This document shows, in pieces, positions 508 to 16,111 of a DNA stretch of 64,000 nt (positions are counted from its first letter, which is position 1; the number at the start of each line of letters is the position of its first letter). Below the pieces are notes generated by a model. It had not been told where the DNA came from, did no database searches, and was given only the letters and a program-made list of their open reading frames with translations. The stretch covers positions 1,472,001-1,536,000 of the forward strand of contig OY759746.1 of assembly GCA_963662795.1 (NCBI GenBank). The letters are read 5' to 3'. A program made the position numbers and the translations under genes. This DNA comes from Spirochaetia bacterium (lineage in GTDB: Bacteria; Spirochaetota; Spirochaetia; CADAEX01).

Positions 508-1800
508 ATGATGACTTTATTTCTGGCGCTGCGAAATCTTTTCCTGCAGCGGAAAAGATACCTTCTTGTTGCCGTGGCTATAGCGGCCGGATTTGCCCTG
601 GTTACTTTTCAGAGCGGTACTGCTTACGGCGCCATGGAAACAGTAATGGTTAAGGCGGCGCGCTATTTTTCAGGGCACGTGAGCATCTCAGGATACAGGA
701 AAAAGGAAAATGCAATAGAAAATCCTGAAGCAATTATAAATGCCGTAAAGTCAGCGGGCCTTCCTGTAAGGACAGTCTCGAAAAGGACCATCTATGCGGG
801 AAAAGAGGCAAGGCTATTCTTCGGAGGCAATTCAGTAAGGCTCAGGCGGCAGGTGGGATTTGATTTTGAGGGAGAAAGCGGAGAACTTGCAAGACTTCCC
901 TTCACGGAAGGGGGGATTGAGGGGATGGCAGAAAGTGAAGGGCATAACGGCATAATTATAAGCCGTGCCGCTGCCAGGCTGCTTGGGGCCCATCTCGGCG
1001 ATGATGTCAGCTTTTATTTGACTGCGGATAACGGACAACACAATACGGCGACAATGATAGTCCGGGGGATCTTTGATGAGACAAGCATATTCGGTTACGC
1101 TACCTATATGCGAAACGATGACCTGAACGCGCTCCTGCAGAGGCCGGAAGGGGCAGCAACCGAGATAGCGGTTTATGCCAGGGAAGGGGTAAATATTGTA
1201 AAATTCGCGGAAAAAATAAGGACTCTCCTCGATAGTGAGCATTCCGTGTTTCCTCCGATACTGCGCCGTGATGATTTCCCGTCCAAAAGAAACAGAAATA
1301 CGGAAAATGAAACTTTTGCCGTAATGTCGCTTGATGCCCATCTTGATCAGATAAAAAATCTTCTTGATGCTTTTCTCGCCGGGTCATACTTTATTTTTGT
1401 TGTTTTTATGCTTATTGTGATGATTGGCGTTCTTAATACCTACAGGGTAATGGTTTATGAAAGGACAAGGGAAATCGGGACCATGCGGGCAATAGGAATG
1501 CAGAGGGGGCAGGTTAAGGCGCTTTTTCTCTATGAGGCAACCGGTCTTGTAACTTTATCCTCAGCCACTGGTTTTGTTATCGGGATTCTGCTTCTTTACG
1601 CGGCCGGTACAGTTGATTTAAGCGGGATAACCGCCTCGGCCCTTTTTACTGAGTCCGGACGGCTGAAATTTTATTTAAGTCCGGGTATTATTTTTACCAA
1701 CTTTCTGATTATGGCTTTTACAGTGCTGCTTGCGGCATGGGGGCCGGCAGACAGGGCCGGTAAAATGCCTCCGGCAGAGGCCCTTGGCAAAAACGGTTAA
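508..1800 (+). CDS. FtsX/LolC-E-type ABC transporter permease
   Basis: LALRNLF N-terminus, large periplasmic domain, ERTREIGTMRAIG motif, C-terminal PADRAGKMPPAEAL. Confidence 0.9.
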   Translation: MMTLFLALRNLFLQRKRYLLVAVAIAAGFALVTFQSGTAYGAMETVMVKAARYFSGHVSISGYRKKENAIENPEAIINAVKSAGLPVRTVSKRTIYAGKEARLFFGGNSVRLRRQVGFDFEGESGELARLPFTEGGIEGMAESEGHNGIIISRAAARLLGAHLGDDVSFYLTADNGQHNTATMIVRGIFDETSIFGYATYMRNDDLNALLQRPEGAATEIAVYAREGVNIVKFAEKIRTLLDSEHSVFPPILRRDDFPSKRNRNTENETFAVMSLDAHLDQIKNLLDAFLAGSYFIFVVFMLIVMIGVLNTYRVMVYERTREIGTMRAIGMQRGQVKALFLYEATGLVTLSSATGFVIGILLLYAAGTVDLSGITASALFTESGRLKFYLSPGIIFTNFLIMAFTVLLAAWGPADRAGKMPPAEALGKNG

Positions 1801-2628
1801 GTGCGCCCTATGTCAAAATACAGGTTTTACGGAGTTTGTGCAGTGATAATAAAAAAATATTTTACGGTTCTGCTTTATTTTATTCTGGCTTCGGGCATGT
1901 TATGTGCCCAAACAATCGAAGATTATAAAAAGCTGCTTAAAAAGGTAGATGCCAATGTTACTTTTAATAAATCGGATTTATCGGCTGAATATACAATAGT
2001 TAAAAGGGACCCCGGCGGGTCTACCTCAACAACAGTGGCGGCCATGTTCAGGCGGGATAAAACAGACCAGTTTCTTATCCTTGTTCTTGAGCCTGTTTCT
2101 GACAAGGGGAAGGGCTACCTCAAAATCGGGGACAACCTGTGGCTTTATGACCCTGTCGGGCGGAGTTTTACCTTTACAAGCGCAAGGGAGAGGTTTCAGA
2201 ATTCAAGCGCGAGAAATTCCGATTTCAACAGGTCGAATTTTTCAAATGACTACCGCCCTGTCTCAGGCAGGAGAGAAAAACTTGGCCGTTTTGAGTGCAC
2301 CGTCCTTGAGCTTGAAGCTGTAAATACAAGTGTTTCTTTCCCGAAAATGATTATATGGGTATCAGATAACGATAACCTTGTAAGGAAGATTGAGGATTAC
2401 AGCCTTTCGGGACAGCTGATGAGAACTACCGCGGTACCCAGTTATCAGAAAGTCGGGAATCTCTGGGTCCCCCAGGCCCTTGTTATACTTGATCACCTTA
2501 ATTCAAAAGTCATATCCGGAAAGACCGAGTATGAACGGACAACCATTACAATAAAAAATCCTTCAGTTGCGGATATTCCTGATTCAGTCTATACAAAAGA
2601 ATATCTTGAAAAGGTAAATACCAGATGA
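1801..2628 (+). CDS. LolA-like outer-membrane lipoprotein-sorting protein (start uncertain)
   Basis: Signal peptide (…GMLCA); EPVSDKGKGYLKIGDNLWLYDP and 'ERFQNS' patterns typical of LolA-like sorting proteins found next to LolCE-like permeases. Confidence 0.75.
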   Translation: MRPMSKYRFYGVCAVIIKKYFTVLLYFILASGMLCAQTIEDYKKLLKKVDANVTFNKSDLSAEYTIVKRDPGGSTSTTVAAMFRRDKTDQFLILVLEPVSDKGKGYLKIGDNLWLYDPVGRSFTFTSARERFQNSSARNSDFNRSNFSNDYRPVSGRREKLGRFECTVLELEAVNTSVSFPKMIIWVSDNDNLVRKIEDYSLSGQLMRTTAVPSYQKVGNLWVPQALVILDHLNSKVISGKTEYERTTITIKNPSVADIPDSVYTKEYLEKVNTR

Positions 2629-3827
2629 ATTTCAGGAAAAATGCCTCATTTATAAAGCTGCCGGCTTTACTGCTCTGCGGCTTTTTGTTTTTTTACCCGT
2701 CTGCCTTGTACTCACAGGAAGCGGAGTCAAGTTCGGACCTGGATTCCCTTTTTGAGGATGCCCCTGAGGATATTGTGGCAGAGGATACACAGACCGACCA
2801 CCTGACCCAGTTTCAGGAAACCGAGAAAATGAAGGTAAGCGGCAATTTTACCGCTAAGGGAGGCGCGGCCTTCGGCTGGGAAAGCCTTCCTGAAAGCGGC
2901 GGGAGTCTTACTGACGGGCTTGGGTTTACTCCGGGGGCACGATCGCTTGCGAGACTGACTTTTGATTCAAGACCCAGCACGGTGTTCAGTATGTACGGCA
3001 GCTTTTATACGGAAATTGACCCTTCAGAAGGGGAGAACAACTGGTCGGAACCTGTTATTGATGAGCTTTTCAGCGATTACAATTGGCTTGACAAAGCCTT
3101 TATCAGGATGGGAAAGCACAGGGTAACCTGGGGACAGGGGCGTATATATACCCCCGGTGATCTTATGTCCGCAAGTGAAGACGGCGCTACATTCAGGGTA
3201 AGTATGCCTACCCTTCTTGACGGTGTCTCGTTTGTCTCTTTGCTTGATGAAAGTTTTATCGGCGAAGATGAATCGTTATCCGCATACGATCTTGCTTATG
3301 GAGTACTTGCTGACAAGATATTCGGCGGCATAAGGCTTTCCGCAGGAACCCGCTGGCAGAGAGATCTTGGGTTTACTTCACTTGTTTCTTTTAAAAAAGT
3401 TTTATGGAAAACCGATCTGCTTTCGGATTTTATCCTTCATTACAATGATGATGAAATTGATTTTGAGACGCTTGCCGGTTTTTTCAGGGAATGGCCGCAG
3501 TATAAACTATACGGTGAATACTATTTTAACGGAAGAACAGAATCATGTGATGACCATAACATAGGCCTTGCCGGCACATATAAGAATATTTTCTCGACTC
3601 CGCTTGATTTCGGAATTGAGTGGCTTCATGCTTTCATGAATGATTCGGGGCGTCTTACAACCGGCGTTTCCTGGAAACCGTGGAAACTGGTTACTGCAAG
3701 TATCGGGGTACCTTTTTTCTACGGTAACTATGAAAACAGGTATGAAGAGGATGATGATGATGTGAACCTTCTCTCTGAAAGAAAGCTGTCGTTCGCCTTT
3801 TTTCTTGAGCTATCTTCCTCTTTTTAA
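2625..3827 (+). CDS. Putative outer-membrane beta-barrel protein
   Basis: Signal peptide, acidic N-terminal plug (DLDSLFED), GKHRVTWGQG motif, alternating beta-strand pattern, terminal Phe (FFLELSSSF). Confidence 0.6.
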   Translation: MNFRKNASFIKLPALLLCGFLFFYPSALYSQEAESSSDLDSLFEDAPEDIVAEDTQTDHLTQFQETEKMKVSGNFTAKGGAAFGWESLPESGGSLTDGLGFTPGARSLARLTFDSRPSTVFSMYGSFYTEIDPSEGENNWSEPVIDELFSDYNWLDKAFIRMGKHRVTWGQGRIYTPGDLMSASEDGATFRVSMPTLLDGVSFVSLLDESFIGEDESLSAYDLAYGVLADKIFGGIRLSAGTRWQRDLGFTSLVSFKKVLWKTDLLSDFILHYNDDEIDFETLAGFFREWPQYKLYGEYYFNGRTESCDDHNIGLAGTYKNIFSTPLDFGIEWLHAFMNDSGRLTTGVSWKPWKLVTASIGVPFFYGNYENRYEEDDDDVNLLSERKLSFAFFLELSSSF

Positions 3828-4528
3828 GGACTCTGCCTTATGTTTTCCGCCACAAGACCGTCCTTCAGCCTGATGATGTGGTCAGCTATTGAGAAGATAT
3901 TCTGGTCATGTGTTGAAAATATAAAGGTTGTGTGCAGGGTGCTGTTTATCCTCTTCATAAGCCCGATTATTTCTTCGCCGGTTTTACTGTCAAGGTTAGC
4001 TGTAGGTTCATCCGCGAGAACTATCTGAGGTTTTGTTACAAGAGCCCTGGCAATGGCCACCCTCTGTCTCTGTCCGCCCGAGAGTTCATTCGGCCTGTGG
4101 TTCTTCCATTTCGTAAGGCCTACTGATTCTATCAGGTGATCAATATACTCTGTTTCAGATGATCTGCCGGATTCTGATTTTTTCCTTTTTCCCAGCAGCA
4201 GCGGGAATTCAATATTCTCAAAAACATTCAGCACGGGAAGAAGGTTGAAAGACTGAAATATAAATCCTATATATTTATGCCTGAGTTTGGTAATTTCACG
4301 GTCGGAGAGAGAGCCTGTCTGGAGGCTGTTTACTGTCACGGTGCCTGATGTCGGGACATCAATGCAGCCTATCATATTCAGTATTGTTGATTTTCCCGAA
4401 CCGGAAGGACCGATTATCGAGATAAAATCCCCTTTTTCTATTTCAAAAGAGATTCCGTTGACTGCTGTTACTTCGGTTTTTCCAAGGGGATAGGTTTTCC
4501 TTACATCCTTAAGCCTTACTATAGCCAT
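3824..4528 (-). CDS. LolD/MacB-type ABC transporter ATP-binding protein
   Basis: Walker A GPSGSGKS, IGFIFQSFNL, signature LSGGQRQRVAIARAL, Walker B LADEPTANLD, STHD. Confidence 0.95.
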   Translation of the reverse strand: MAIVRLKDVRKTYPLGKTEVTAVNGISFEIEKGDFISIIGPSGSGKSTILNMIGCIDVPTSGTVTVNSLQTGSLSDREITKLRHKYIGFIFQSFNLLPVLNVFENIEFPLLLGKRKKSESGRSSETEYIDHLIESVGLTKWKNHRPNELSGGQRQRVAIARALVTKPQIVLADEPTANLDSKTGEEIIGLMKRINSTLHTTFIFSTHDQNIFSIADHIIRLKDGLVAENIRQSP

Positions 4529-4665
4529 TTACCCTCCAGTCGCTGATTGAGGGATTATAGCAATTTTAGGCTCCATGTTGCAAGGCTGGCGGCCTTAAAC
4601 ACTGCTGCCGTTTAAGACTCAGAAGGCCTTGAATATTTCATGCTTACTGCATAATATTTTCACCT

Positions 4666-5733
4666 GTGAACAAAGATATTAATTACGCCGGCCGCCGGTT
4701 GGGCATATTTACCGCAGGGTTCCGCTGGAGCGGGTCAAGCGCGTTAAGCGACTGGCTTGAATCATTTTCATCAGTCAGAAAACCGCCGGGATGCCAGGCT
4801 GCCTATGATGAAATCAGGGCTCTTAACTATGGCCTTACTCTTGTGATAAAGGCAGTTGAGAAAACGCCCCTTTACGGCGAGCAGCTTTCCAGGTACTCAA
4901 TGTATCCCGATAAGAGCCGGTGGAACAGTATCTTCGGAAAGCCCCTTTCCCTGAAGACAGTATGCACTGATGCCCTGTTTATGACTGCCGCGAAAGGAAA
5001 GCTTAATCCGGGCCTTGAAAGCTACGGCCCTCTTTTAAGCACTTCCCTCGGCCGGGACTACAGAAGCGATACTGAATATATCAAAACCATAGGTAATCTG
5101 ACAGAAGCGGCCAGAAGCCTCATCAAAAAATATCCCGGCAGGCGTAGCTGGGAAGCTGTTGCGGGAGATAAGGATTTTTCCTCATCTGTTTCGGCCTTTC
5201 TCGGGCTTTTTTATGAAAGGCTCAGCTCATCCGGCGTTGTCCCGGTCTTTGATAACGCGATATCAGCCCTTAATCCCCGGTTTTTTGATCTTGTGGAAAA
5301 CTCTGTTTTCCCCGTGCAGCTTATCATGTTTGTAAAACGGGACCCGAGGGACCAGTTCGCGGAGCTTGTAAAATACAGCGCTAAAACTTTTTCCTTTATG
5401 GTCCGCTCTTTCATAAAGGATTACAGAAGGAACATAACCCGCTCCTTAAACTACACTTCCATATCAGGCGGCCGCCCGGATTCAGGGAAAATCATCCGGC
5501 TGATAGATTTTGAGGATTTTGTTTATGATACAAGCGGAATCAGAAGGGAGATGGGATCAGTTCTTTCAGGGCTTCTCTCTGATTTTTCATTTTCCGCTGA
5601 TTTTGATCCCCGTTTTTTTAATCCAGAAAAATCCAAACCTAATATCGGGATATGGAAAAATTCCGGAATGAAAAAGGAAATGGATCTGATTAAAAAAAGT
5701 CTGCCCGAATTCCTCAGGCCGGAATCTGACTGA
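4666..5733 (+). CDS. Sulfotransferase-like P-loop protein
   Basis: N-terminal GFRWSGSSALSDWL loop, RDPRDQ motif and FEDFV segment resemble PAPS-binding sulfotransferase motifs; sits next to glycan genes. Confidence 0.5.
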   Translation: MNKDINYAGRRLGIFTAGFRWSGSSALSDWLESFSSVRKPPGCQAAYDEIRALNYGLTLVIKAVEKTPLYGEQLSRYSMYPDKSRWNSIFGKPLSLKTVCTDALFMTAAKGKLNPGLESYGPLLSTSLGRDYRSDTEYIKTIGNLTEAARSLIKKYPGRRSWEAVAGDKDFSSSVSAFLGLFYERLSSSGVVPVFDNAISALNPRFFDLVENSVFPVQLIMFVKRDPRDQFAELVKYSAKTFSFMVRSFIKDYRRNITRSLNYTSISGGRPDSGKIIRLIDFEDFVYDTSGIRREMGSVLSGLLSDFSFSADFDPRFFNPEKSKPNIGIWKNSGMKKEMDLIKKSLPEFLRPESD

Positions 5734-6769: not shown

Positions 6770-7816
6770 TTAATCAGGGAAATTATAGGGATTGAGCAGT
6801 GATGATGCCCTGCTTCCTGATATTTCAACTTCAAGTGTATTGTCCGGCCCTGATGATAAATTGGGGGAAATCAGCATTGGAAGTGAGTCAGCATAACGGA
6901 TTTTGTATCTATGATTGTGTCCGGTTATAATTAACCGGATGTCATGTTTTTTATAAAATTCTATGGCTTCATCATAATCAGCAAACTCATCATCTACCGG
7001 ATGATGCTGTACGGCAAAAACATTTTTACCCTTTTTTTCGGCATTATAAAGTATATTATCAGCCCATTTTATTGTATCCCCGGAAATGTGTCCGTCAGGC
7101 GGAGTAACCCTGAATGGAAAACCCCTGTTTCTTTTCCATTGGGCTGTATCGAGACATAGAAGAACAAGACCCGGCAGGGGCTCAACAGCATAAGACAGGG
7201 AGGTTTTATCCCTTGAAAATGCTTCTCTGTAACCGAATTCGCCGTAAATCTCTGAAAAATCTTTTGCTGAAATATTTTTTGCGTGCCTGGGTTTGTTTTT
7301 AAGAAACTGAAGCCCTTTGGAATTTTTTACATCGTGGTTTCCCGGAACAACATAGGCCTGTATCCCTGATTTTTCGAAATCAAGCAGGATCTCCGCAAGC
7401 AGTATATGGCTTGCCTTGTCTCCGTTTACAGTAAGGTCCCCAGGTATGACAATGAAGTCTGCCTCAGAACCTGCAGCCCTATCAAGGGCAAATCTGGTAT
7501 TCTCAAAGTTATCATCAAATACTTTTTTTGTTATTTTAAGGTAACTGTTCCATGCCTGGTAATCATTTACAAGTGTGTCAGAGTCATACCCGTGCAGATC
7601 GCCGAGTACTGTCATTGTGAAATCACGGTTTCCCGGTTTTATGCGAAAAATATATGGATTGCCTGTTATGTCTTCTGCTTCTGATATGTAAGTGTAGTCT
7701 TCCAGCGGTGTTTTTACAGAAGCGCATGAAAAAGATATTACGGACAATATTGACAGTATAATTGCTGAAAAAAACAATCTGTTGCTTTTTCTCAGGTACT
7801 CGGTATTTTCAGACAT
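6770..7816 (-). CDS. Calcineurin-like metallophosphoesterase, probable lipoprotein
   Basis: GDLH, GDLT, PGNHD, QHHP, TGHNH motifs; lipobox-like SFSC after a hydrophobic stretch. Confidence 0.88.
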   Translation of the reverse strand: MSENTEYLRKSNRLFFSAIILSILSVISFSCASVKTPLEDYTYISEAEDITGNPYIFRIKPGNRDFTMTVLGDLHGYDSDTLVNDYQAWNSYLKITKKVFDDNFENTRFALDRAAGSEADFIVIPGDLTVNGDKASHILLAEILLDFEKSGIQAYVVPGNHDVKNSKGLQFLKNKPRHAKNISAKDFSEIYGEFGYREAFSRDKTSLSYAVEPLPGLVLLCLDTAQWKRNRGFPFRVTPPDGHISGDTIKWADNILYNAEKKGKNVFAVQHHPVDDEFADYDEAIEFYKKHDIRLIITGHNHRYKIRYADSLPMLISPNLSSGPDNTLEVEISGSRASSLLNPYNFPD

Positions 7817-7888: not shown

Positions 7889-9211
7889 ATGAAAATTGCT
7901 GTTATCGGAACAGGATATGTAGGACTGGTTTCCGGCGCGTGTTTCGCGGAATTCGGCTGGGACGTTACATGCATTGATAAAAATACGGAAAGGATAACTT
8001 CCCTTGAAAAAGGGGTCATGCCGATATATGAACCGGGACTTGAAGCGCTTGTAATTAAAAACACATCCGCGGGAAGGCTTTCTTTTTCTCTTGAATACGC
8101 GCCGCATGTTGAAAATGCCGATATCGTGTTCATTGCTGTCGGGACTCCTGAAAGAAGGGGCGGGGGCTACGCTGATCTTACCTATGTTTATCAGGCAGCG
8201 GCCGAAATAGCTCATCACCTGAAAGGATATACTGTAATAGTTGATAAAAGCACTGTTCCTGTAGGAACTGCGAGAAATGTGGAAAGGATAATAAGAGAGC
8301 AAAATCCTGAAGCTGATTTTGATGTGGCATCAAATCCCGAATTCCTCCGTGAAGGGTCCGCGATCGGGGATTTCATGAGGCCGGACCGGGTTGTTCTGGG
8401 CGCTGAAAGCGATAAGGCGAAGGAAATGCTTAAAGAACTTTACAGGCCGCTTTTCCTTCTTGAGACGCCGATGCTTATAACCGGCCTTGAAACCGCGGAA
8501 CTTATAAAATACGCGAGCAACTCGTTTCTTGCGGCAAAGATTTCTTTTATTAATGAAATCGCGAACCTCTGCGAAAAGGTGGGGGCGGATGTCAAGGATG
8601 TTTCCCGCGGAATGGGACTTGATAAAAGGATAGGCTCTAAATTTCTTCATGCAGGCCCCGGATACGGCGGCTCCTGCTTTCCAAAGGATGTTTCAGCTCT
8701 TGTCAAAATATTCCACGATAACGGTATGACGGGCCGTATCCTTGAGGCTGTCGTCAATGTGAATAATTCCCAGAAATCCCTTATGGTAGGCAAAATCAGA
8801 TTTGCACTCGGAGGCAGTGAATACGGAAAAACAATCGCCATACTGGGGCTCACTTTTAAACCCGAAACAGATGACATGAGGGAGGCACCCGCGCTAACCA
8901 TAATTCCCGCGCTTCTTGACGGAGGGGCGAAAATTAGCGCGGCTGACCCGGCAGGGATAAACGAGGCAAAAAGACTTCTTCCTGAAGGGATCTCATATTT
9001 TGATGATGCCTATGAGGCCTGCAGGGGAGCGGATGCCGTTGTTCTTCTTACCGAGTGGAATCAGTACAGGGCCCTAAACTTTAAAAAGCTTAAAGATTTG
9101 ATGACTGGAAGGATTTTCATTGATCTTAGAAATGTATTTAATTCCATGATTCTGAAGAACGCAGGATTTGATTATTTCTGTGTCGGGCATGGTGAGAGGG
9201 TTCAGGAGTAG
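7889..9211 (+). CDS. ugd: UDP-glucose 6-dehydrogenase
   Basis: GTGYVGL, KSTVPVGT, SNPEFLREG, GYGGSCFPKD (catalytic Cys), FKPETDDMRE. Confidence 0.95.
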   Translation: MKIAVIGTGYVGLVSGACFAEFGWDVTCIDKNTERITSLEKGVMPIYEPGLEALVIKNTSAGRLSFSLEYAPHVENADIVFIAVGTPERRGGGYADLTYVYQAAAEIAHHLKGYTVIVDKSTVPVGTARNVERIIREQNPEADFDVASNPEFLREGSAIGDFMRPDRVVLGAESDKAKEMLKELYRPLFLLETPMLITGLETAELIKYASNSFLAAKISFINEIANLCEKVGADVKDVSRGMGLDKRIGSKFLHAGPGYGGSCFPKDVSALVKIFHDNGMTGRILEAVVNVNNSQKSLMVGKIRFALGGSEYGKTIAILGLTFKPETDDMREAPALTIIPALLDGGAKISAADPAGINEAKRLLPEGISYFDDAYEACRGADAVVLLTEWNQYRALNFKKLKDLMTGRIFIDLRNVFNSMILKNAGFDYFCVGHGERVQE

Positions 9212-9213
9212 GG

Positions 9214-11997
9214 ATGCTGGATTTTTTTTATACACTGTTTATTTTTCCGATTGAAACTGTAATCAGTGTTTTTTACTGGTTATTTCTGCAGATGTTTGAA
9301 ATACACGGGATCGCCATCATCTGCCTGAGCGTTACCGTAAATATTATACTTCTTCCGCTCTACAATGTCGCCGAAAGGTGGCAGCAGAGGGAAAGGAATA
9401 TCCAGGCTCATCTTAAAAATAAACTTGATGATATAAGGGCCGTATTTAAGGGCGCAGAGCGTCACATGATAATAAGGACATATTACCGGCAGAACCACTA
9501 TCATCCATTTTATTCTTTAAGAAATGTGATAGGGCTTGCAATACAGATCCCCTTTTTTATAGCGGCATATCATTTTTTAAGCCATATGCCGATGTCAGCA
9601 AAAACCAGTTCATATTATTTTATTAAAGATCTCATGCGCCCTGACGCGTTATTGACTGTTTCAGGCCTTTCCATAAATCTGCTTCCCGTAGTCATGACTG
9701 TGATAAACCTTGTTTCCGCGTTTGTTTATTCCGGCAAGCTTCAGAAAAAGGAAAAAAACCAGCTTTTTATAATGGCGCTGCTCTTTCTTGTACTTCTTTA
9801 TAATTCTCCGGCCGGGCTTGTCCTTTACTGGACAATGAATAATGTGATATCCCTGATCAAGAATATTATAAACTCAGGCCGGAATCCCAGGAAGTATTTT
9901 TATATTACTCTTGCTGGTTTTGCAGCTTTCATGTTTGTTTACTCCCTGTTGTTGAGATATCCCCTGTTCATGAGACTGGCCGGCCTTGATGGGTTTGTTT
10001 TTAAGGCAAAAAAAATACGGCAGATAAATATAATTACAGGAAGTTTTTTTGCTTTTGTTTTATTGTTTCCGGTATTTTCAAAATTTATCCATAAAGCAGT
10101 TGAAAATATATTTTCAGGATTAAAGAATTCCCTAAAGGACGGAACAGCTGTTTTTGCGTTATCGTGCATAATATTGTTTATGCTGACAGGCCTTGTTGCC
10201 CCTTCATTTCTGATTTCAGGTTCTCCGCTTGAGTTTGCGGAAGTTATCTCCGGCGGCAACTATAACCCCTCCTGGGCAATAGTTAAATCTGCACTGCAGG
10301 CCTTTTCCCTGTTTATTTTTATTCCTTCTGTAATTTATATCCTTTTCTCCAGGGATGTAAAAAAATACCTGATCCTTTTATCTTTCCTTTTTGCGGTGAC
10401 GGCTCTTGTAAACATTTTTATCTTTTCCGGCTCCTACGGGGTAATCAGTCCGGATTTTACATTTGATAATTCACAGATACTGAAGCCTGAAGTGTATCAG
10501 GTTTTTCTTAACTTTTCTGGAATAGTATCTGCTGCGGCTCTAAGCGTTTTCTTAATTAAAAAAAAATATTATAAAATTATAAACAATTTATTAATTATAA
10601 TAATAATTTCACTTGCAAGTATTTCTGCTTTTAATATACATAAAATCAATTCAGAATTTCGCCACATGCTTTCCTATAATTCTGTTTTGACTTTTGAGGA
10701 AAAAAATCAAAAATCCAAGAATATTTTTACTTTATCAAAAAAAGGAGAAAATGTTTTTGTTATAATGTTGGACAGGGCCCTTGGCGGACTGATGGGTGAG
10801 GTTTTAAACCATAATCCTGAGTTTCTGGAGCAAATGACGGGTTTTGTCTGGTATCCAAATACAGTTTCTTTTAACGGACATACCCTGCTGGGCGCACCGC
10901 CTCTTTTCGGCGGTTATGAATATACGCCAGTTGAAATGAATAAACGTGATAAATTGCCGCTTGTAGATAAGCATAATGAAGCTCTTCTCGTAATGCCTCG
11001 TATTTTTCTTGAAAGTGGATATGAAGTTAAAGTTACAGATCCGAGTAATGCCAACTATTCTGAAATACCGGATCTCAGTATTTTTAAGGAGTATCCCGGC
11101 ATAAAGGCAGAATTAATTGTCGGTAAATTCACCTCAGACTGGATTAATGAAAATATTAAAGATGATTCAAATAGTAACATTTCAGAAGTATTGAATGAAT
11201 ATCTTCTAAATTTCAGTATTTTCAGAATAGCACCTAATTTCCTTCGAAGCAGAATTTATGACAGCTCCAGATGGTTAAAGCCTGTTAAGGCAAACCTTCC
11301 TCTTAGGTTCATAGACAGTTATTCTATTCTTGATTATCTCCCCAGGATAACAGGGTTTGATGCGGAAAAAAATACTTTCAATATGACTGTTAATTATACA
11401 ATTCATGAACCCAGAATACTTAATATATACTTACCTGAAGAGTTCAGAAGTACTCTGTCAGAAGATTTCAACTATAAAACTTCAATTCAGGACAGCTATA
11501 CGCTTAAACATTTTTATACTCAGATTGGGGCATTTCAAAAACTATGTAAATGGTTTAATTATTTAAAAGAGAATAATGTTTATTCCAATACAAAGATAAT
11601 AATCGTTTCAGATCACGGCCGTCGTGATATAGTCGATCCGTTTTTTATTAACTTTTCAGATGATAATAAACTAACAAATAATTATACATATTATCATCCT
11701 TTACTGCTTGTAAAAGAATTTAATGCAGAAGGAAAACTAAAAATCTCTGATGACTTTATGACAAACGCAGATGTTCCATCAATTGCTGTTTCACATCTGG
11801 ATAATGGAGTTAATCCGTTTACAGGCAACCCAATTAAAGGTGAACAGAAGAAGGACGGAGTGGATATTGTAACAGTTCATACCTGGAAAGAAGATCTTAA
11901 CTACAGTAAATATAAATTCAAATTTTCAGATAAAGATATTATTCATGTAAAAAATAATATTTTCATAAAAGAGAACTGGACTGGGATTATTAAATGA
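9214..11997 (+). CDS. YidC/Oxa1 insertase domain fused to a multi-TM segment and an alkaline-phosphatase/sulfatase-fold (LtaS/EptA-like) domain
   Basis: Residues 1-~220 carry YidC core features (IILLPL, QIPFFIAAY, IKDLMRPD, NLLPVVM, PAGLVLYWTMNN). About 6 more TM helices follow, then NVFVIMLD, NTVSFNGHT, IHEP, IIIVSDHG and FMTNADVP. Confidence 0.8.
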   Translation: MLDFFYTLFIFPIETVISVFYWLFLQMFEIHGIAIICLSVTVNIILLPLYNVAERWQQRERNIQAHLKNKLDDIRAVFKGAERHMIIRTYYRQNHYHPFYSLRNVIGLAIQIPFFIAAYHFLSHMPMSAKTSSYYFIKDLMRPDALLTVSGLSINLLPVVMTVINLVSAFVYSGKLQKKEKNQLFIMALLFLVLLYNSPAGLVLYWTMNNVISLIKNIINSGRNPRKYFYITLAGFAAFMFVYSLLLRYPLFMRLAGLDGFVFKAKKIRQINIITGSFFAFVLLFPVFSKFIHKAVENIFSGLKNSLKDGTAVFALSCIILFMLTGLVAPSFLISGSPLEFAEVISGGNYNPSWAIVKSALQAFSLFIFIPSVIYILFSRDVKKYLILLSFLFAVTALVNIFIFSGSYGVISPDFTFDNSQILKPEVYQVFLNFSGIVSAAALSVFLIKKKYYKIINNLLIIIIISLASISAFNIHKINSEFRHMLSYNSVLTFEEKNQKSKNIFTLSKKGENVFVIMLDRALGGLMGEVLNHNPEFLEQMTGFVWYPNTVSFNGHTLLGAPPLFGGYEYTPVEMNKRDKLPLVDKHNEALLVMPRIFLESGYEVKVTDPSNANYSEIPDLSIFKEYPGIKAELIVGKFTSDWINENIKDDSNSNISEVLNEYLLNFSIFRIAPNFLRSRIYDSSRWLKPVKANLPLRFIDSYSILDYLPRITGFDAEKNTFNMTVNYTIHEPRILNIYLPEEFRSTLSEDFNYKTSIQDSYTLKHFYTQIGAFQKLCKWFNYLKENNVYSNTKIIIVSDHGRRDIVDPFFINFSDDNKLTNNYTYYHPLLLVKEFNAEGKLKISDDFMTNADVPSIAVSHLDNGVNPFTGNPIKGEQKKDGVDIVTVHTWKEDLNYSKYKFKFSDKDIIHVKNNIFIKENWTGIIK

Positions 11998-13280
11998 AAT
12001 TCCAATTTTACATCTTTTATTTTATTTTTATCAACACGTTTCTTGTACAGGCTTATATAGATCCGGGTACAGGGAGCATGCTGTTTGCCGTGCTGACCGG
12101 AATAATCTCAACTCTTTTCTTTGCCGGAAAAACACTGTTTATAAGACTGAAGACTTTGCCGTTCTGGTATAAAAAAGATAAAACAGCAGTTTCCGGAGCA
12201 GAAAGAAAGAAATATGTTTTTTATTCTGAAGGAAAGCAGTACTGGAATGTCTTTAAACCTGTTATTGATGAATTCATCAGGCGTAAACTTTCATGCAGTT
12301 ATTATACATCGGATAAGGAAGACCCGGGCCTTGAAGTCTCATCTGAATTTGTTAAACCGGAGTTTATCGGGAGAGGTAATATGGCCTATTCAAAACTGAA
12401 TATGCTTGAGACTGATATCTGTGTTATGACAACTCCCGGTCTTGATGTTTACCAGCTTGAAAGATCTAAAGGGGTAAAGCATTACAGCCATATACTCCAT
12501 GCGGTAGACGATACTACCCTCTATAAACTTTTCAGTTTTGATTATTATGATTCCATGTTTCTTTCAGGGGAATATCAGAAAGAAAGCATCAGGGAGCTTG
12601 AGGCTAAAAGGGGAACAAAAGAGAAAGACCTGTATGTCACAGGCAGCACATATCTTGATGTTCTCTCATCAAAAGTAAAAACGCTTGATGTAAAGAGAAA
12701 AAATGATGTGATAACTGTTCTCGTATCTCCATCATGGGGAGACAATTCTCTTTTAAAAAAATTCGGACTTAAACTGCTTCTTCCATTGGTTAAGTCAGAA
12801 ATGCGTGTAATATTAAGGCCGCATCCGCAGTCGTCCATTTCTGAAACAGAATTGCTTGATAATATAAAAGAAGGTCTTAAGGATTTTAAAAATGTTGAAT
12901 GGGATTTTTCGCGGGAGAACATAACGTCAATGGCAAGATCTGATATAATGATTTCAGATTTTTCCGGAATTATGTCTGATTACCTGTTTCTTTTTTCAAA
13001 ACCTGTTATCTATACGAGTTATGAATTTGATAAAAGAGGTTATGACTTAAGCGATGTCGAAGGAATCCCCTGGAAATTCAGAATGCTGAAAGAAGCGGCA
13101 GTTGAAATCGGTGAAGAAAATTTTAATGATGTTTCAGCAATAATCAAAAAAACACTTGCCAGCGATGTTGTTTCCAGAAAAATTGAGGAAGCTAAAAACA
13201 CTGCATGGTTCTATCAGGGAAAAGCAGGCGAAAAATGCGCCGATGCGCTTGAAAGTATTCATTCAAACCTTGAAAATTGA
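11994..13280 (+). CDS. CDP-glycerol:glycerophosphate phosphotransferase (TagB/TagF family) with N-terminal signal plus TM anchor
   Basis: VSPSWG, LRPHP, SDIMISDFSGIMSDYLFLFSKPVI motifs; N-terminal AYIDPGTGS-TM module. Confidence 0.8.
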   Translation: MKFQFYIFYFIFINTFLVQAYIDPGTGSMLFAVLTGIISTLFFAGKTLFIRLKTLPFWYKKDKTAVSGAERKKYVFYSEGKQYWNVFKPVIDEFIRRKLSCSYYTSDKEDPGLEVSSEFVKPEFIGRGNMAYSKLNMLETDICVMTTPGLDVYQLERSKGVKHYSHILHAVDDTTLYKLFSFDYYDSMFLSGEYQKESIRELEAKRGTKEKDLYVTGSTYLDVLSSKVKTLDVKRKNDVITVLVSPSWGDNSLLKKFGLKLLLPLVKSEMRVILRPHPQSSISETELLDNIKEGLKDFKNVEWDFSRENITSMARSDIMISDFSGIMSDYLFLFSKPVIYTSYEFDKRGYDLSDVEGIPWKFRMLKEAAVEIGEENFNDVSAIIKKTLASDVVSRKIEEAKNTAWFYQGKAGEKCADALESIHSNLEN

Positions 13281-13304
13281 TTCATCGGAACGGGAGGCGG
13301 TAAA

Positions 13305-13787
13305 TTGAAATATGACAGATGTGTAGTAAACGGCGTATTTGATCTTTTTCATGTAGGGCACGTGAGGCTGCTGCAGAGGGCAAAGGAGATGTTCAAAGAA
13401 GTCGTTGTAACAATCGATTCAGATGAACTTACAATGAAAGAAAAAAGAAGACCGATATTTAATCAGGATGAACGGCTTGAAATAGTAAAGGCATGCAGGT
13501 ACGCCGATGACGCTCTTATTATCGACCGTTCGTGGGGGCCGCACGCGGTTGACCCTGCAATGGTTGATGACTTCATGAACAAGTACAATGTAGATGCTGC
13601 TTTTGTCGCGGCTGACGATGAGGAATATGTTAAATACTGGTTCGGGCATTTGCACAGCCAGGGGCGGGTGGTAATTGTCCCGAGGACAAAATACATATCA
13701 ACAACGCATGTGATAAAGATCGTAAACGGTGAAATTGTAAAGGAAGAAAAAGTGAACCTGCTTAACGGCGGCGGACAGGGTAAATGA
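13305..13787 (+). CDS. Cytidylyltransferase, TagD-like
   Basis: GVFDLFHVGH (HxGH), ERLEIVKACRYAD, RTKYISTT (RTxGISTT-like); TTG start with GGAGG SD. Confidence 0.85.
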   Translation: MKYDRCVVNGVFDLFHVGHVRLLQRAKEMFKEVVVTIDSDELTMKEKRRPIFNQDERLEIVKACRYADDALIIDRSWGPHAVDPAMVDDFMNKYNVDAAFVAADDEEYVKYWFGHLHSQGRVVIVPRTKYISTTHVIKIVNGEIVKEEKVNLLNGGGQGK

Positions 13788-14818
13788 AAAAAATTCTTGT
13801 GACAGGGGGATGCGGTTTTATAGGCTTTCACCTTGTAAGGGAGCTTGCGGGAGGTGATTTTAAAATTACCGCGCTTGATTCCATTAACAGCTATTATGAT
13901 CAGGAACTGAAATACCGCAGGCTTGAAGAACTTGGTATCCGAAAAAGCGATATAGCGGATAACAAAATGCTCAAATCAAAGCTTTTTTCGGATGTTGAAT
14001 TCATCAAACTTGATACGGCTGAGAAGGAAGAGCTGGATAATCTGTTTAAGGAAAAAAAATTTGATATTGTATGCCATCTTGCCGCCCAGGCCGGGGTACA
14101 GTATTCGCTGGTCAATCCGCAGTCGTATATTGACAGCAATATAACGGGGTTTTTGAATGTTCTTGAATCCTGCAGAACATACGGCCCCCGAAAACTTGTT
14201 TATGCGAGCAGTTCGAGCGTTTACGGCAATAATGTCAAGCAGCCGTTTGCGGAATCCGACAGGACCGACAGCCCTGTGAGTATGTACGCGGCAAGCAAGA
14301 AATGCAACGAGCTTATGGCCGGAGTCTACAATTCCCTTTACGGACTTAAGTCCGTCGGATTGAGGTTTTTTACGGTTTACGGCCCCTGGGGAAGACCTGA
14401 TATGGCCTATTTCAAGTTTGTCAGGAAGATTTTAAACGGAGAGCCGATTGAGGTTTACAATAACGGAGTAATGAAGAGGGATTTTACATATATCGACGAT
14501 ATTACCGAAGGGCTTAAGAGAGTTATTACTTCCTTTGCCGAAAGCGGTGAGGATGTAAAATCAGAAATTTACAATATCGGCAGGGGCAAGCCAGAAGACC
14601 TCGTATCGTTTATTGAAACTATTGAGAAAAACCTTGAAGTCAGGGCTGAAAAAAAATATATGCCATTCCAGATCGGAGATGTGGAAGAAACCTTTGCCGA
14701 TGTTTCGCTGCTTGAGAAAGATTACGGCTATAAACCCCATGTTGACCTTGAAGAAGGGATCAGGGAGTTTGTGAAATGGTATAAGGCCTGGAATTCCTCA
14801 GGCAAACCTTTCTTTTAA
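13784..14818 (+). CDS. UDP-glucuronate 4-epimerase-like NAD-dependent epimerase (CapI/WbnF type)
   Basis: GGCGFIG, HLAAQAGV, YAASKK, RFFTVYGPWGRPDMA. Confidence 0.9.
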   Translation: MKKILVTGGCGFIGFHLVRELAGGDFKITALDSINSYYDQELKYRRLEELGIRKSDIADNKMLKSKLFSDVEFIKLDTAEKEELDNLFKEKKFDIVCHLAAQAGVQYSLVNPQSYIDSNITGFLNVLESCRTYGPRKLVYASSSSVYGNNVKQPFAESDRTDSPVSMYAASKKCNELMAGVYNSLYGLKSVGLRFFTVYGPWGRPDMAYFKFVRKILNGEPIEVYNNGVMKRDFTYIDDITEGLKRVITSFAESGEDVKSEIYNIGRGKPEDLVSFIETIEKNLEVRAEKKYMPFQIGDVEETFADVSLLEKDYGYKPHVDLEEGIREFVKWYKAWNSSGKPFF

Positions 14819-16111
14819 AAACTTTTTCAGCGCTTCATCGGAATTATCAATTAAAACTGATTCCTTTTTTAAGTTTAAAAGCTTTTCAAGCTGTGCCGGG
14901 AGCGGAGGGTTTTTACCTGTAGCTTTTTCAACTACCTCGAGAAACTTTCCGGGGTGGGCAGTGGACAGGGTTACAACCGCAGTCGCCCCGCTCCTGCCCG
15001 GCAGGGTTTTAATATATCTTTTTGCCGCCGTATAACCCACAGCAGTGTGCGGATCAATAAACCTTTTTTTCTTTTCATAAAAATCCCTTACAGCTTCAAT
15101 TGTCTCATCATCATCTACCCATTCCCCTGTTATCATTTCACCCATCTTTTTGTAATCATCCCTGAAAATATCCTTAAGCCTCTCGAAGTTGCTTGGGTTG
15201 CCGACATCCATGGCATTTGAATATGTCAGAACTGATGGCCGGGGAGTGTAAATTCCTGACTCAAGATATTCGGGCACTTCCCTGTTAAGGTTTGTCGCTG
15301 CGATAAACTTTGTTACGGGAAGGCCCCACCTGGCGGCAAGTACGCCTGCAGTGAGATCTCCGAAATTCCCGCTTGGAACAGAGAAAACAATATCGCTGTA
15401 TCTGTCTTTGAGCTGGTTAACCGCCCAGACATAATAAAACGACTGCGGAAACAGTCTTCCGAGGCTTATGGAGTTTGCGGATGTCAGAGGAAGGGCTGAG
15501 AGTTCGTCGCTTACAAATGCGTCCTTTACCATCCTCTGGCAGTCGTCGAAAGAGCCTTTTACCTCAAGCGCTGTTACATTGCCGCCGAGGGTTGTAAGCT
15601 GTTTTTCCTGGAGAGGGCTTACCCTTCCGGAAGGATAAAGTATTACTACCTCGATATTGTTTCTTTTGTGAAAAGCCTGGGCGACAGCGCTTCCCGTGTC
15701 TCCGGATGTCGCGGTAAGGATTATTGCTTTCCTCTCCTCGTCTTTCAGAAACTCTTCCATGGCGGCGGCAAGAAAGGACGCCCCGAAATCTTTAAAAGCG
15801 CATGACGGGCCGTGATAAAGCTCAAGAATAAACATGTTTTCATCGGCAGATGTCAGTTCCGGTTTAAAGGGAAAAGCTTTCCTGCATACGCTTTCCGCCC
15901 TGTCCGGTGTCAAATCGTCTTTAAGGACAACAGAGGACAGAGCTGATGAGGACTCAATAAAAGAAGTTTTACTGTCCATTGATTTGAATAGATCTGACAG
16001 GTCAGGGTATTCGGCGGGGTTGTACAGCCCTCCGTCAGGCGCAAGCCCCTGAAATACCGCTTCGCGGAAACTTACCATGTTTTCCCTGTTTCTTGTGCTG
16101 TAGAATTTCAT
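14798..16111 (-). CDS. thrC: Threonine synthase
   Basis: MKFYSTR, GLAPDGGL, HGPSCAFKDFG (PLP Lys), ATSGDTG, VPSGNFG, STAHPGKF. Confidence 0.96.
   Translation of the reverse strand: MKFYSTRNRENMVSFREAVFQGLAPDGGLYNPAEYPDLSDLFKSMDSKTSFIESSSALSSVVLKDDLTPDRAESVCRKAFPFKPELTSADENMFILELYHGPSCAFKDFGASFLAAAMEEFLKDEERKAIILTATSGDTGSAVAQAFHKRNNIEVVILYPSGRVSPLQEKQLTTLGGNVTALEVKGSFDDCQRMVKDAFVSDELSALPLTSANSISLGRLFPQSFYYVWAVNQLKDRYSDIVFSVPSGNFGDLTAGVLAARWGLPVTKFIAATNLNREVPEYLESGIYTPRPSVLTYSNAMDVGNPSNFERLKDIFRDDYKKMGEMITGEWVDDDETIEAVRDFYEKKKRFIDPHTAVGYTAAKRYIKTLPGRSGATAVVTLSTAHPGKFLEVVEKATGKNPPLPAQLEKLLNLKKESVLIDNSDEALKKFLKERFA

Follow-up and report, generated by a model that had tools for sequence, protein, structure and literature searches.

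A 64,000-nucleotide stretch of the genome of a Spirochaetia bacterium (GenBank assembly GCA_963662795.1, contig OY759746.1, positions 1,472,001 to 1,536,000), referred to here as the window, carries an operon in which a 927-amino acid (aa) protein joins a YidC/Oxa1-like membrane domain to an enzyme domain of the alkaline phosphatase (AP) superfamily. The operon consists of five plus-strand genes arranged head to tail at window positions 7889-14818, with stop and start codons that overlap or nearly abut; only two bases lie between the stop codon of the first gene and the ATG of the fusion (Table 1). The gene for the fusion (P0001) is followed by genes for a TagF-like phosphotransferase (P0002) and a cytidylyltransferase (P0003), an order already described in a first-pass annotation of this DNA, which had proposed that the fusion and its neighbors constitute a teichoic-acid-like or phospho-decoration pathway. 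The analysis considered here supports assignment of the fusion to a pathway for phospho-decoration of the envelope. The tie between the fusion and the TagF-like gene is upheld, while the unit itself is better described by three components than by the fusion plus its neighbors: a YidC-like part (Y), a TagF-like part (T), and a membrane AP enzyme (A). Fused, split, and co-located in many relatives, these three parts very probably form one functional module.

Table 1. Features of the fusion operon and its immediate flanks (window coordinates).
Feature	Position	Strand	Remarks
Promoter-like site	7750..7778	+	TTGACA-17-AACAAT, 10/12 consensus; weak pattern match; precedes operon
UDP-glucose 6-dehydrogenase (Ugd/TuaD-like), operon gene 1	7889..9211	+	three UDPG_MGDP_dh domains; TIGR03026, 464 bits
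927-aa fusion (P0001)	9214-11997	+	open reading frame without internal stop
YidC/Oxa1-like domain (Y), residues 1-230	9214..9903	+	five core transmembrane helices, conserved cytoplasmic hairpin, N43 at groove
Seven hydrophobic segments, residues 229-473	9898..10632	+	hydropathy
AP-superfamily domain (A), residues 474-927 and stop codon	10633..11997	+	predicted periplasmic
TagF-like phosphotransferase (T; P0002), 428 aa	11994..13280	+	PF04464; overlaps fusion by 4 bases
YIDPGTGS motif of P0002	12054-12077	+	invariant among aligned partners
Cytidylyltransferase (P0003), GCT/ECT/CCT family, 160 aa	13305..13787	+	PF01467; TTG start
NAD-dependent nucleotide-sugar epimerase/dehydratase, last operon gene	13784..14818	+	4-base overlap with preceding gene
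Terminator-like hairpin 3' of operon	14992..15006	+	pattern match only

The fusion protein and its AP domain

The N-terminal domain of the fusion scores 80.6 bits with the Pfam family 60KD_IMP (PF02096; gathering cut-off, 35) over residues 32-219 and positions 2-160 of the 163-position model; the same family is matched by all 39 full-length fusion homologues of the alignment used here (A1), and TIGR03592 falls marginally below its cut-off (83.8 versus 84.3 bits). Models of full-length YidC are matched only from about position 375 of 602, so the fusion is without the large periplasmic P1 domain, as the first-pass annotation had it. The domain aligns with the solved YidC proteins of Thermotoga, E. 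coli, and Bacillus halodurans. Beyond the YidC core, hydropathy gives seven hydrophobic segments and then a 454-aa C-terminal domain; additional transmembrane (TM) helices had thus been correctly foreseen, though their number had been put at about six. The first two of the seven segments form a variable linker hairpin, while the last five match the five-TM base of a triple fusion, P0179, whose sequence was read by eye; an hhalign comparison of the fusion with type-B AP proteins likewise spans this TM region. Short K/R-rich loops at residues 379-385 and 449-454 mark the inner face in the hydropathy profile. Given the odd number of TM segments, these inner loops, and the domain order of P0179, the A domain is predicted to lie outside the membrane.

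A single-sequence search with P0001 gives for the C-terminal domain a PF01663 match of 16.9 bits (cut-off 23; E 0.005) and no PF00884 match, and phmmer with the single fusion sequence returned no solved relative of the AP domain. The assignment becomes clear at the family level: PF00884 matches 35 of the 39 aligned homologues at E<=0.01 (best 1.6e-11), and a profile of the family matches solved sulfatases (7oz8, E 3e-7; others near 1e-3) and LtaS (4uoo, E 0.03). Of the Pfam split into a 60KD_IMP part and a sulfatase/phosphodiesterase part that the earlier reading had called for, the first part is seen in the single protein, and the second at the level of the family. Residues D520, T557, H731, D800, and H801 are invariant in 39/39 homologues, which includes the Asp, the Thr, and the Asp-His pair singled out beforehand, and the same pattern aligns in an unfused A protein from another spirochete locus (L180). 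By their invariance and by analogy with the superfamily, D520, T557, and D800-H801 are taken to be metal ligands and nucleophile. We liken the spacing of the acidic residue, the Thr, and the Asp-His pair to that of the ligands and nucleophile of LtaS and EptA; the first metal ligand would be Asp in A, as against Glu in LtaS/EptA. In overall build A also resembles LtaS, EptA/MCR, OpgB, GacH, and BcsG, all of which have a multi-TM base followed by an extracytoplasmic domain of the AP/sulfatase family. It is near-certain that A is a multi-TM, predicted outward-facing AP-superfamily transferase of LtaS/EptA-like build with a candidate Thr nucleophile.

A different activity for this domain, phosphodiesterase or sulfatase action in the trimming or recycling of surface polymers or lipids, is suggested by the sulfatases at the head of its matches to the Protein Data Bank and by the phosphodiesterase family PF01663, which is matched by 19/39 homologues. 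Such a hydrolase is nevertheless very improbable. The invariant candidate nucleophile is a Thr, whereas the nucleophile of sulfatases is a Cys or Ser that is converted to formylglycine; enzymes that transfer lipid headgroups are built in this way, with a multi-TM base and an AP domain facing outward; and the association of A with activating enzymes and with a transferase dependent on CDP/CMP points to synthesis.

Full-length fusion homologues of 890-960 aa are abundant, and a scan of one genome per species yielded at least 590 relatives of the fusion. An assembly chimera is ruled out by these two results, and the protein can be regarded as genuine. The Y subfamily as a whole comprises 1044 clusters of 50% identity at E<=1e-30. 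The locus counts given below refer to the best 79 loci among the at least 590 relatives; nearly all are from Spirochaetota (Treponema, Sphaerochaetaceae, Termitinemataceae, and others), with a few records labelled otherwise, and metagenome bins may carry incorrect organism names.

A YidC-like subfamily without the groove charge

The source genome has three genes with a YidC domain. One is a canonical yidC (586 aa, 214 bits) flanked by yidD and jag elsewhere in the genome, the separate copy anticipated by the first-pass annotation; the others are the fusion and a stand-alone 230-aa copy, each at 86 bits. The same division is seen in 5/5 other genomes with fusions, which have exactly one canonical YidC (196-220 bits) and one to four fusions (78-91 bits), such that scores are about 80-90 bits for Y and about 200 for canonical YidC. 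Y never adjoins yidD or jag, and the fusion is located in a glycan operon. Because canonical YidC is kept in all genomes checked, Y is not the housekeeping insertase.

Y is 26% identical to the core of the canonical YidC of the source genome, with all five core TM helices aligned, and it shares with the YidC/Oxa1 family the motifs Q-x-P-x-F, P-x-x-M, and PSG-L-x-x-Y-W. It departs from the family, including the second YidC paralogues of Gram-positive bacteria, at the groove. The first-pass annotation had remarked on N in place of the groove Arg, and the alignment bears this out: N43 of the fusion takes the position held by the groove Arg in Thermotoga YidC and by a Lys in the canonical YidC of the source genome, and TM1 of the fusion (residues 32-50) contains no K or R. 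This position is N, T, or S in 39/39 aligned homologues, and a count over 151 diverse representatives gives N in 86, S in 40, T in 18, Q in 3, C in 2, F in 1, and R or K in 0/151. All YidC homologues are said, in one paper, to carry a strictly conserved positive residue in the groove (PMC8920935).

The loss of charge is accompanied by strong constraint elsewhere in the domain. Invariant or nearly so in Y are S39, P48, Q111, P113, D144, N155, P158, N165, Q183, Y205, W206, N209, and N210, of which N155, N165, Q183, and N209 are specific to the subfamily relative to the canonical YidC of the source genome; a set of subfamily-specific invariant Asn/Gln residues in TM3-TM5 and an invariant cytoplasmic hairpin, largely conserved at F78, G80, E82, Y91, Y96, and P98, thus distinguish Y from other YidC/Oxa1 proteins, as does the presence of a fused enzyme in the majority of representatives. 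K216, close to where TM5 ends on the cytoplasmic side, is invariant in A1, and the canonical copy has Gln there. Y is also the most conserved domain of the fusion. Paralogue pairs within a locus (n=41) have median identities of 63% for Y, 29% for the TM region, and 39% for A, with Y exceeding A in 41/41, and random pairs between loci (n=300) have medians of 58%, 28%, and 37.5%, with Y exceeding A in 300/300. Y is therefore not a relic, and the idea that it is a decaying membrane anchor is ruled out. On alignment and conservation, Y is near-certainly a YidC/Oxa1-fold domain that has lost the groove Arg/Lys.

The membrane-tethered TagF-like partner

P0002 matches PF04464 at 34 bits (cut-off 22.1), and its paralogue at a second locus of the same genome does so at 53 bits; P0003 matches PF01467 at 70.3 bits, in line with the first annotation of a TagF-like gene followed by a cytidylyltransferase gene. 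The equivalog for TarF scores only 15 bits with P0002, below its cut-off of 550. A profile of T aligns with the capsule polymerase Cps3D (8qoy) in the C-terminal Rossmann half (E 1.4e-6), and the two share the motifs PxW(G/R), R-x-H, and (S/T)D(F/Y)S; in Pfam the N-terminal half of T has no detected relatives. Roles of individual residues in T are putative, being assigned by invariance and by analogy with the superfamily.

The feature that sets T apart is its N-terminus. In 31/31 aligned T partners a short N-terminal piece (median 7 residues) is followed by the motif YIDPGTGS, a single TM helix, and a K/R-rich stretch (mean of 4.7 K+R per 20 residues), and within the tail motif Y21, D23, P24, and G27 are invariant. 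The T of the window and its nearest relatives have, ahead of the motif, a piece resembling either a signal peptide or an initial TM helix. Two fusions carry the motif internally: P0179 has it after the AP domain and before the sole helix leading into the cytoplasmic TagF-like domain, and P0226 has it at the turn of a TM hairpin. The order of P0179 and P0226, together with the topology of T, would place YIDPGTGS at the outer face of the membrane and the catalytic domain of T inside. Four genomes of one family have a T homologue of just 371-383 aa. T is near-certainly a membrane-tethered cytoplasmic phosphotransferase of the TagF family.

The architecture of T raises a protein-directed function for Y, namely as an insertase, holdase, or docking site dedicated to the N-out helix and YIDPGTGS tail of T, and perhaps to the TM base of A, by which the inner and outer enzymes would be tied into one complex without any lipid being carried by Y. 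A short N-terminal tail followed by one TM helix and a K/R-rich stretch is the classic form of a Sec-independent YidC substrate, and that is the build found in all 31 aligned T proteins; protein insertion is, moreover, the established function of the YidC family, the tail motif is conserved well beyond the needs of membrane anchoring, and the conserved cytoplasmic hairpin of Y suggests a specific protein partner. This function is considered possible but rather unlikely. The motif is kept even where it is internal, behind a large periplasmic domain in P0179 or in the TM hairpin of P0226, and for that reason it is not simply an N-tail insertion signal; a housekeeping YidC is present in every genome checked; and the positive groove residue is absent throughout the 151 Y representatives.

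Three parts of one module

The commonest form of the module is the Y-A fusion, which accounts for 115 of the best 150 representatives (700-1149 aa) found with the stand-alone Y as query; another 13 are shorter than 350 aa, and 21 are of intermediate length, at least some of these being truncated at contig edges. Y is always N-terminal in these 150, and none of them is a Y-T fusion without A. T is fused directly to A as well, since 48 of the 56 longer relatives of T bear the N-terminal motif, R-P-H-P, and a C-terminal x-D-H-G; these T-A fusions include records from Erysipelothrix, Clostridiales, and Sphaerochaeta. A tagF homologue whose loss is reported to attenuate Erysipelothrix is mentioned in a review (PMC7174600). 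All three parts occur in one chain, Y-A-T, in the cluster represented by P0179 (1309 aa). T is further found fused to a phosphonopyruvate-decarboxylase-like enzyme that is dependent on thiamine pyrophosphate (TPP) in P0226 (810 aa), and to a GT4 glycosyltransferase in P0172 (about 780 aa).

The source genome itself has a second module in which the parts are split, about 27 kb upstream of the fusion (G000:C1:1453148-1456892; L004:10149-13893). Here, adjacent genes encode a 577-aa multi-TM PF00884 protein, the stand-alone 230-aa Y, and a 441-aa T; the Y is 42% identical to the N-terminus of the fusion, and the T is 39% identical to P0002 and has the same N-terminal motif. BLASTP of the AP part of the fusion against the AP protein of the split locus gave nothing significant, while profile comparison relates them to each other (probability 94.5%, E 7.6e-8) across the TM base and into the catalytic domain, whose initial part is aligned. 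The split module lies in a cluster rich in glycosyltransferases (GT4, GT2, GT8, and a methyltransferase). Directly 3' of it is a 778-aa open reading frame (L004:13890-16226) that matches no family in Pfam or NCBIfam and is not similar to the fusion.

Co-location of the parts is widespread. A T homologue of 38-68% identity is encoded on the same strand within 10 kb of the fusion in 62/79 loci, and within 300 bp in 45/79. The number of fusion copies per locus is 1, 2, or 3 in 48, 24, and 7 loci, respectively (117 copies in the 79 loci), while T is present once in 55 of them; per genome there are up to five A matches and one or two T matches, although such matches do not translate exactly into copies. 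An even sample of 301 Spirochaetota genomes, in which related genomes are not independent and counts are accordingly descriptive rather than a test, includes 57 with a type-A AP enzyme (E<=1e-10) and 58 with T (E<=1e-30); both are present in 54, out of 61 genomes that have either one. The carriers are concentrated in four families, and two large families have none (0/17 and 0/45). The co-occurrence with TagF-like genes that the first-pass annotation had proposed to check is seen in both loci and genomes.

A occurs without T in three of the sampled genomes, two of them with weak matches and one 86% complete, and T occurs without a detected type-A AP enzyme in four. In all four of the latter, which also have a canonical YidC, a stand-alone Y of 224-246 aa directly adjoins T, an adjacency that would be expected if Y served as insertase or docking site for T; yet a T that has neither TM helix nor motif still has a stand-alone Y adjoining it (genome G181), and each Y-A paralogue has its own Y, up to three per locus, usually with one T. 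One of the T-only loci (L180) encodes two unfused A proteins, a 370-aa T lacking both the TM helix and YIDPGTGS, a 224-aa Y, a LicC-like nucleotidyltransferase, and an ABC importer. In this locus, from a family of small-genome spirochetes, an ABC-importer permease is fused to a LicD-like C-terminal piece (L180:10711-12864; PF04991, weak), which suggests that choline, aminoethylphosphonate, or a similar headgroup is taken up and transferred.

Outside the Y-A fusions the association is looser. The expectation that a type-B AP enzyme is always accompanied by Y and T is rejected, since among 80 loci of metagenome relatives of type-B A, both partners are present in seven, Y alone in two, T alone in two, and neither in 69, and flanks of 6 kb are available for many of these 69. 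The type-B relatives closest in sequence (41-43% identity) are those with Y and T. Y and T are therefore additions within a subclade of the A family.

The association of the parts bears on a further possibility, that T and A act independently on the same polymer, T decorating an undecaprenyl-linked glycan inside the cell and A adding a second headgroup outside from bulk phospholipid, with Y an assembly factor or scaffold that takes no part in the chemistry. Acting independently is the normal mode of TagF-type enzymes and of the LtaS/EptA/OpgB/GacH/BcsG families. One member of the latter group, BcsG, is described as a phospholipid-headgroup transferase in a preprint (bioRxiv 10.64898/2026.09.23.753746). 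The absence of Y and T from most type-B loci fits this arrangement, as do the glycosyltransferases, Bac_transf priming enzyme, and sugar-nucleotide genes that are often nearby. It is nonetheless improbable, because it leaves unexplained the fusion of T to A across the membrane in at least 48 proteins, the joining of all three parts in P0179, the presence of T with a type-A AP enzyme in 54/61 genomes, and the position of Y as the most constrained domain.

Activating enzymes and candidate headgroups

The cytidylyltransferase P0003 scores 67.1 bits with the TagD equivalog TIGR01518, below the cut-off of 165.4, and its best solved relative is the ethanolamine-phosphate cytidylyltransferase 3elb (5e-18), followed by TagD 1coz (1e-15). 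A gene like P0003 is found nearby in just 3/79 loci, so the proposal that the module always goes with TagD, one half of the co-occurrence put forward at first, is rejected. Other activating enzymes are commoner, and as a consequence the headgroup is probably not always glycerol phosphate. Envelope phospho-decoration stands as a description of the pathway, while 'teichoic-acid-like', with its reliance on CDP-polyol, is too narrow for so varied a set of activating enzymes; the gene context argues for varied donors of T and against CDP-glycerol as a universal one.

Clustering of the genes within 8 kb of the module in the 79 loci identifies as the commonest neighbor a LicC/PntC-like nucleotidyltransferase fused to a pyridoxal phosphate (PLP) enzyme, in 34/79 loci (cluster 2; e.g., L015:14821-16567). 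It is followed by GT4 glycosyltransferases (30/79), Ugd-like dehydrogenases (20/79), GDP-mannose-dehydratase-like genes (18/79), a phosphoenolpyruvate (PEP) mutase fused to a cytidylyltransferase (11/79), and phosphonopyruvate-decarboxylase-like TPP enzymes (10/79); the Bac_transf priming enzyme, glycosyltransferases, and sugar-nucleotide genes are common neighbors in general. PEP mutase (Ppm) and/or phosphonopyruvate decarboxylase (Ppd), the only phosphonate genes counted, are present in 14/79 loci and in 10 of the 34 loci with the nucleotidyltransferase-PLP fusion.

Tde1415 of Treponema denticola is a characterized PntC that forms CMP-2-aminoethylphosphonate (Rice et al. 2019, PMC6697681), and the nucleotidyltransferase half of the commonest neighbor matches it (6pd1, E 5.8e-13). 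The PLP half is of class I/II, closest to a protein resembling Thr-phosphate decarboxylase (6oux, E 2e-47), and differs from the class V 2-aminoethylphosphonate transaminase of Tde1415; identification of this neighbor as a PntC-AEPT protein like Tde1415 is rejected, since only the nucleotidyltransferase half is similar. From the gene context, 2-aminoethylphosphonate is the probable headgroup in some loci, and an amino-alcohol phosphate a possible one elsewhere. For the operon of the window, which has an ECT/TagD-like cytidylyltransferase instead of an enzyme of the Pnt pathway, glycerol phosphate, ethanolamine phosphate, and a phosphonate are all candidates.

There is no Ppm inside the operon, and the LicC/PntC-PLP fusion was not found in the source genome. 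PEP mutase-cytidylyltransferase and Ppd-like genes are present elsewhere in this genome, and for that reason it probably makes phosphonates. A Ppd-like gene followed by one Ppm-cytidylyltransferase gene lies at about 587-589 kb, between plsY and the pst operon (L099:6746-9228); a second Ppm-cytidylyltransferase gene (L089:9650-10972) ends about 1 kb before the window and about 10 kb upstream of the operon, and its product scores 317 bits with TIGR02320 (cut-off 319.6). In both Ppm fusions the cytidylyltransferase domain is N-terminal.

Between the two modules of the source genome are glycosyltransferase genes and, at L089:193-7995, a classical soluble member of the TagF family (229 bits), three LicD-like genes, a GT92-like gene, and a weakly matched sulfotransferase-like gene; the region of about 1443 to 1487 kb has the appearance of a single large island for surface glycans. 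In the window, the operon is preceded by Lol/MacB-like transporter genes and a metallophosphoesterase gene, and on its downstream side threonine synthase and aspartokinase genes lie on the opposite strand. Window positions 508-5733 contain two FtsX-type permease genes, a LolA-like gene, an ABC ATPase gene on the opposite strand, and open reading frames of 400 and 355 aa without a family match. Promoter patterns number 26 in the region, barely above the 20.2 +/- 3.8 of shuffled sequences. The GC content is 0.33 over window positions 10001-12000, the TM and AP part of the fusion, compared with 0.40-0.46 around it and about 0.44 in the flanks; the dip could mark a variable or acquired cassette, or merely reflect the composition of the gene.

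A proposed relay across the inner membrane

The three parts may operate as a relay that decorates the envelope with a phospho(no)-headgroup, a tentative reading that is preferred to the others, though its chance of being correct is put at somewhat under even. In the proposed relay, a cytidylyltransferase, here the ECT/TagD-like P0003 and elsewhere a LicC/PntC-like enzyme, sometimes with Ppm and Ppd, would make a CDP- or CMP-activated small headgroup, candidates being glycerol phosphate, ethanolamine-phosphate-like groups, and 2-aminoethylphosphonate. T, working at the inner face, would load this phospho(no)-headgroup onto an acceptor lipid of the membrane; the groove of Y, which is neutral and lined with Asn/Gln, would then allow a scramblase-like crossing of the headgroup and hand the lipid to the adjoining A; and T557 of A would take the headgroup covalently and transfer it to a periplasmic glycan or glycolipid acceptor. 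Since Ugd and the epimerase flank the module in the window, the acceptor there would probably bear uronic acid. Diverged Y-A paralogues could each serve a different acceptor from a single donor made by T, which fits the one to three Y-A copies per locus alongside mostly one T, and stand-alone relatives of A would be users of ordinary phospholipids.

Several observations favor the relay: the fusions in several permutations, the co-location, and the co-occurrence of Y, T, and A; the predicted position of the catalytic domains of T and A on opposite faces of the membrane; and the interleaving of genes for activating enzymes with those for Y-A and T. E. coli YidC is reported, in a preprint, to scramble phospholipids in vitro (bioRxiv 10.1101/2023.09.01.555937).

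A number of points weigh on the other side. The relay is drawn from architecture and analogy, and it leaves the invariant YIDPGTGS tail of T unexplained. Enzymes of the TagF family act directly on lipid-linked glycans and are not known as makers of a headgroup donor lipid. Of the 17 fusion loci that have no nearby T, six have full 10-kb flanks, and the 69 of 80 type-B loci that lack Y and T imply that the A family as such can work alone. The invariant K216 could be a relocated groove charge, in which case the loss of the Arg says less.

The first-pass annotation had offered two functions for the YidC groove, a dedicated insertase for pathway proteins or a repurposed flippase for a lipid- or peptide-linked intermediate. 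Both are still live, and the evidence leans against Y being merely an insertase for proteins of the pathway. That the Y subfamily, with its roughly 1000 clusters of 50% identity, serves as the transmembrane conduit of the relay and is no longer a protein insertase is a possibility advanced with considerable doubt.

Relation to known systems

Each part of the module belongs to or resembles a known family: LtaS/EptA-type enzymes for A, TagF-type enzymes for T, and YidC/Oxa1 for Y. What differs is the combination. A, unlike LtaS and EptA, is fused to or encoded with YidC-like and TagF-like proteins, and its donor may differ from the bulk phospholipid used by enzymes of that type. T shares PF04464 and the motifs of the C-terminal half with TagF/TarF and Cps3D; unlike TagF/TarF, it has its own N-out TM anchor with an invariant tail, is always paired with Y and often fused to A, and in many loci has LicC/PntC-type or phosphonate genes, instead of TagD, as its associates.

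The logic of the proposed relay (load inside, flip, transfer outside) has analogues in the GtrA/B/C and ArnC/E/F/T systems, in which a cytoplasmic synthase of a lipid-linked donor is combined with a small flippase and an outward-facing transferase; by this analogy, several outer transferases could share one donor. The folds differ, TagF-like, YidC-like, and AP-type in the module as opposed to GT-A, GtrA/EamA-like, and GT-C, and what is transported would be a phospho(no)-headgroup instead of a sugar. The module resembles the Pnt pathway in that a LicC/PntC-like nucleotidyltransferase, as in Tde1415, is interleaved with it in the 34 loci noted above. In the literature searched, article text drawn mostly from non-subscription journals, no paper was found that describes this architecture, in agreement with the first-pass annotation, which knew of no functional study, nor one that links a TagF-like enzyme or YidC to the tailoring of phosphonates; a published gene map, such as Fig. 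3c of PMC6697681, may already depict the genes next to Tde1415 without remarking on them.

Implications

The positive charge of the YidC groove has been deemed universal, and Y constitutes a large, constrained subfamily that lacks it and is wired to enzymes of envelope chemistry. The subfamily thereby offers a natural setting in which to test a recent claim, that lipids too are moved by insertases, and if the conduit function proposed for Y is true, it would be the first dedicated role of the YidC fold in small-molecule or lipid transport. The natural Y-A, T-A, and Y-A-T fusions are ready-made constructs for structural work.

The steps that follow CMP activation of phosphonates are stated to be unknown in the Tde1415 paper (PMC6697681). 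The module is a concrete candidate for the steps from CMP-phosphonate to the surface, and it lies inside such loci in many Treponema genomes; in treponemes the relay, if true, would be a candidate for the missing transfer step that places 2-aminoethylphosphonate and related groups on the surface. Treponemes have no classical lipopolysaccharide and have poorly understood surface glycolipids, according to one report (PMC3285142), and a conserved, multi-copy system for surface decoration bears on how these bacteria present themselves to their hosts.

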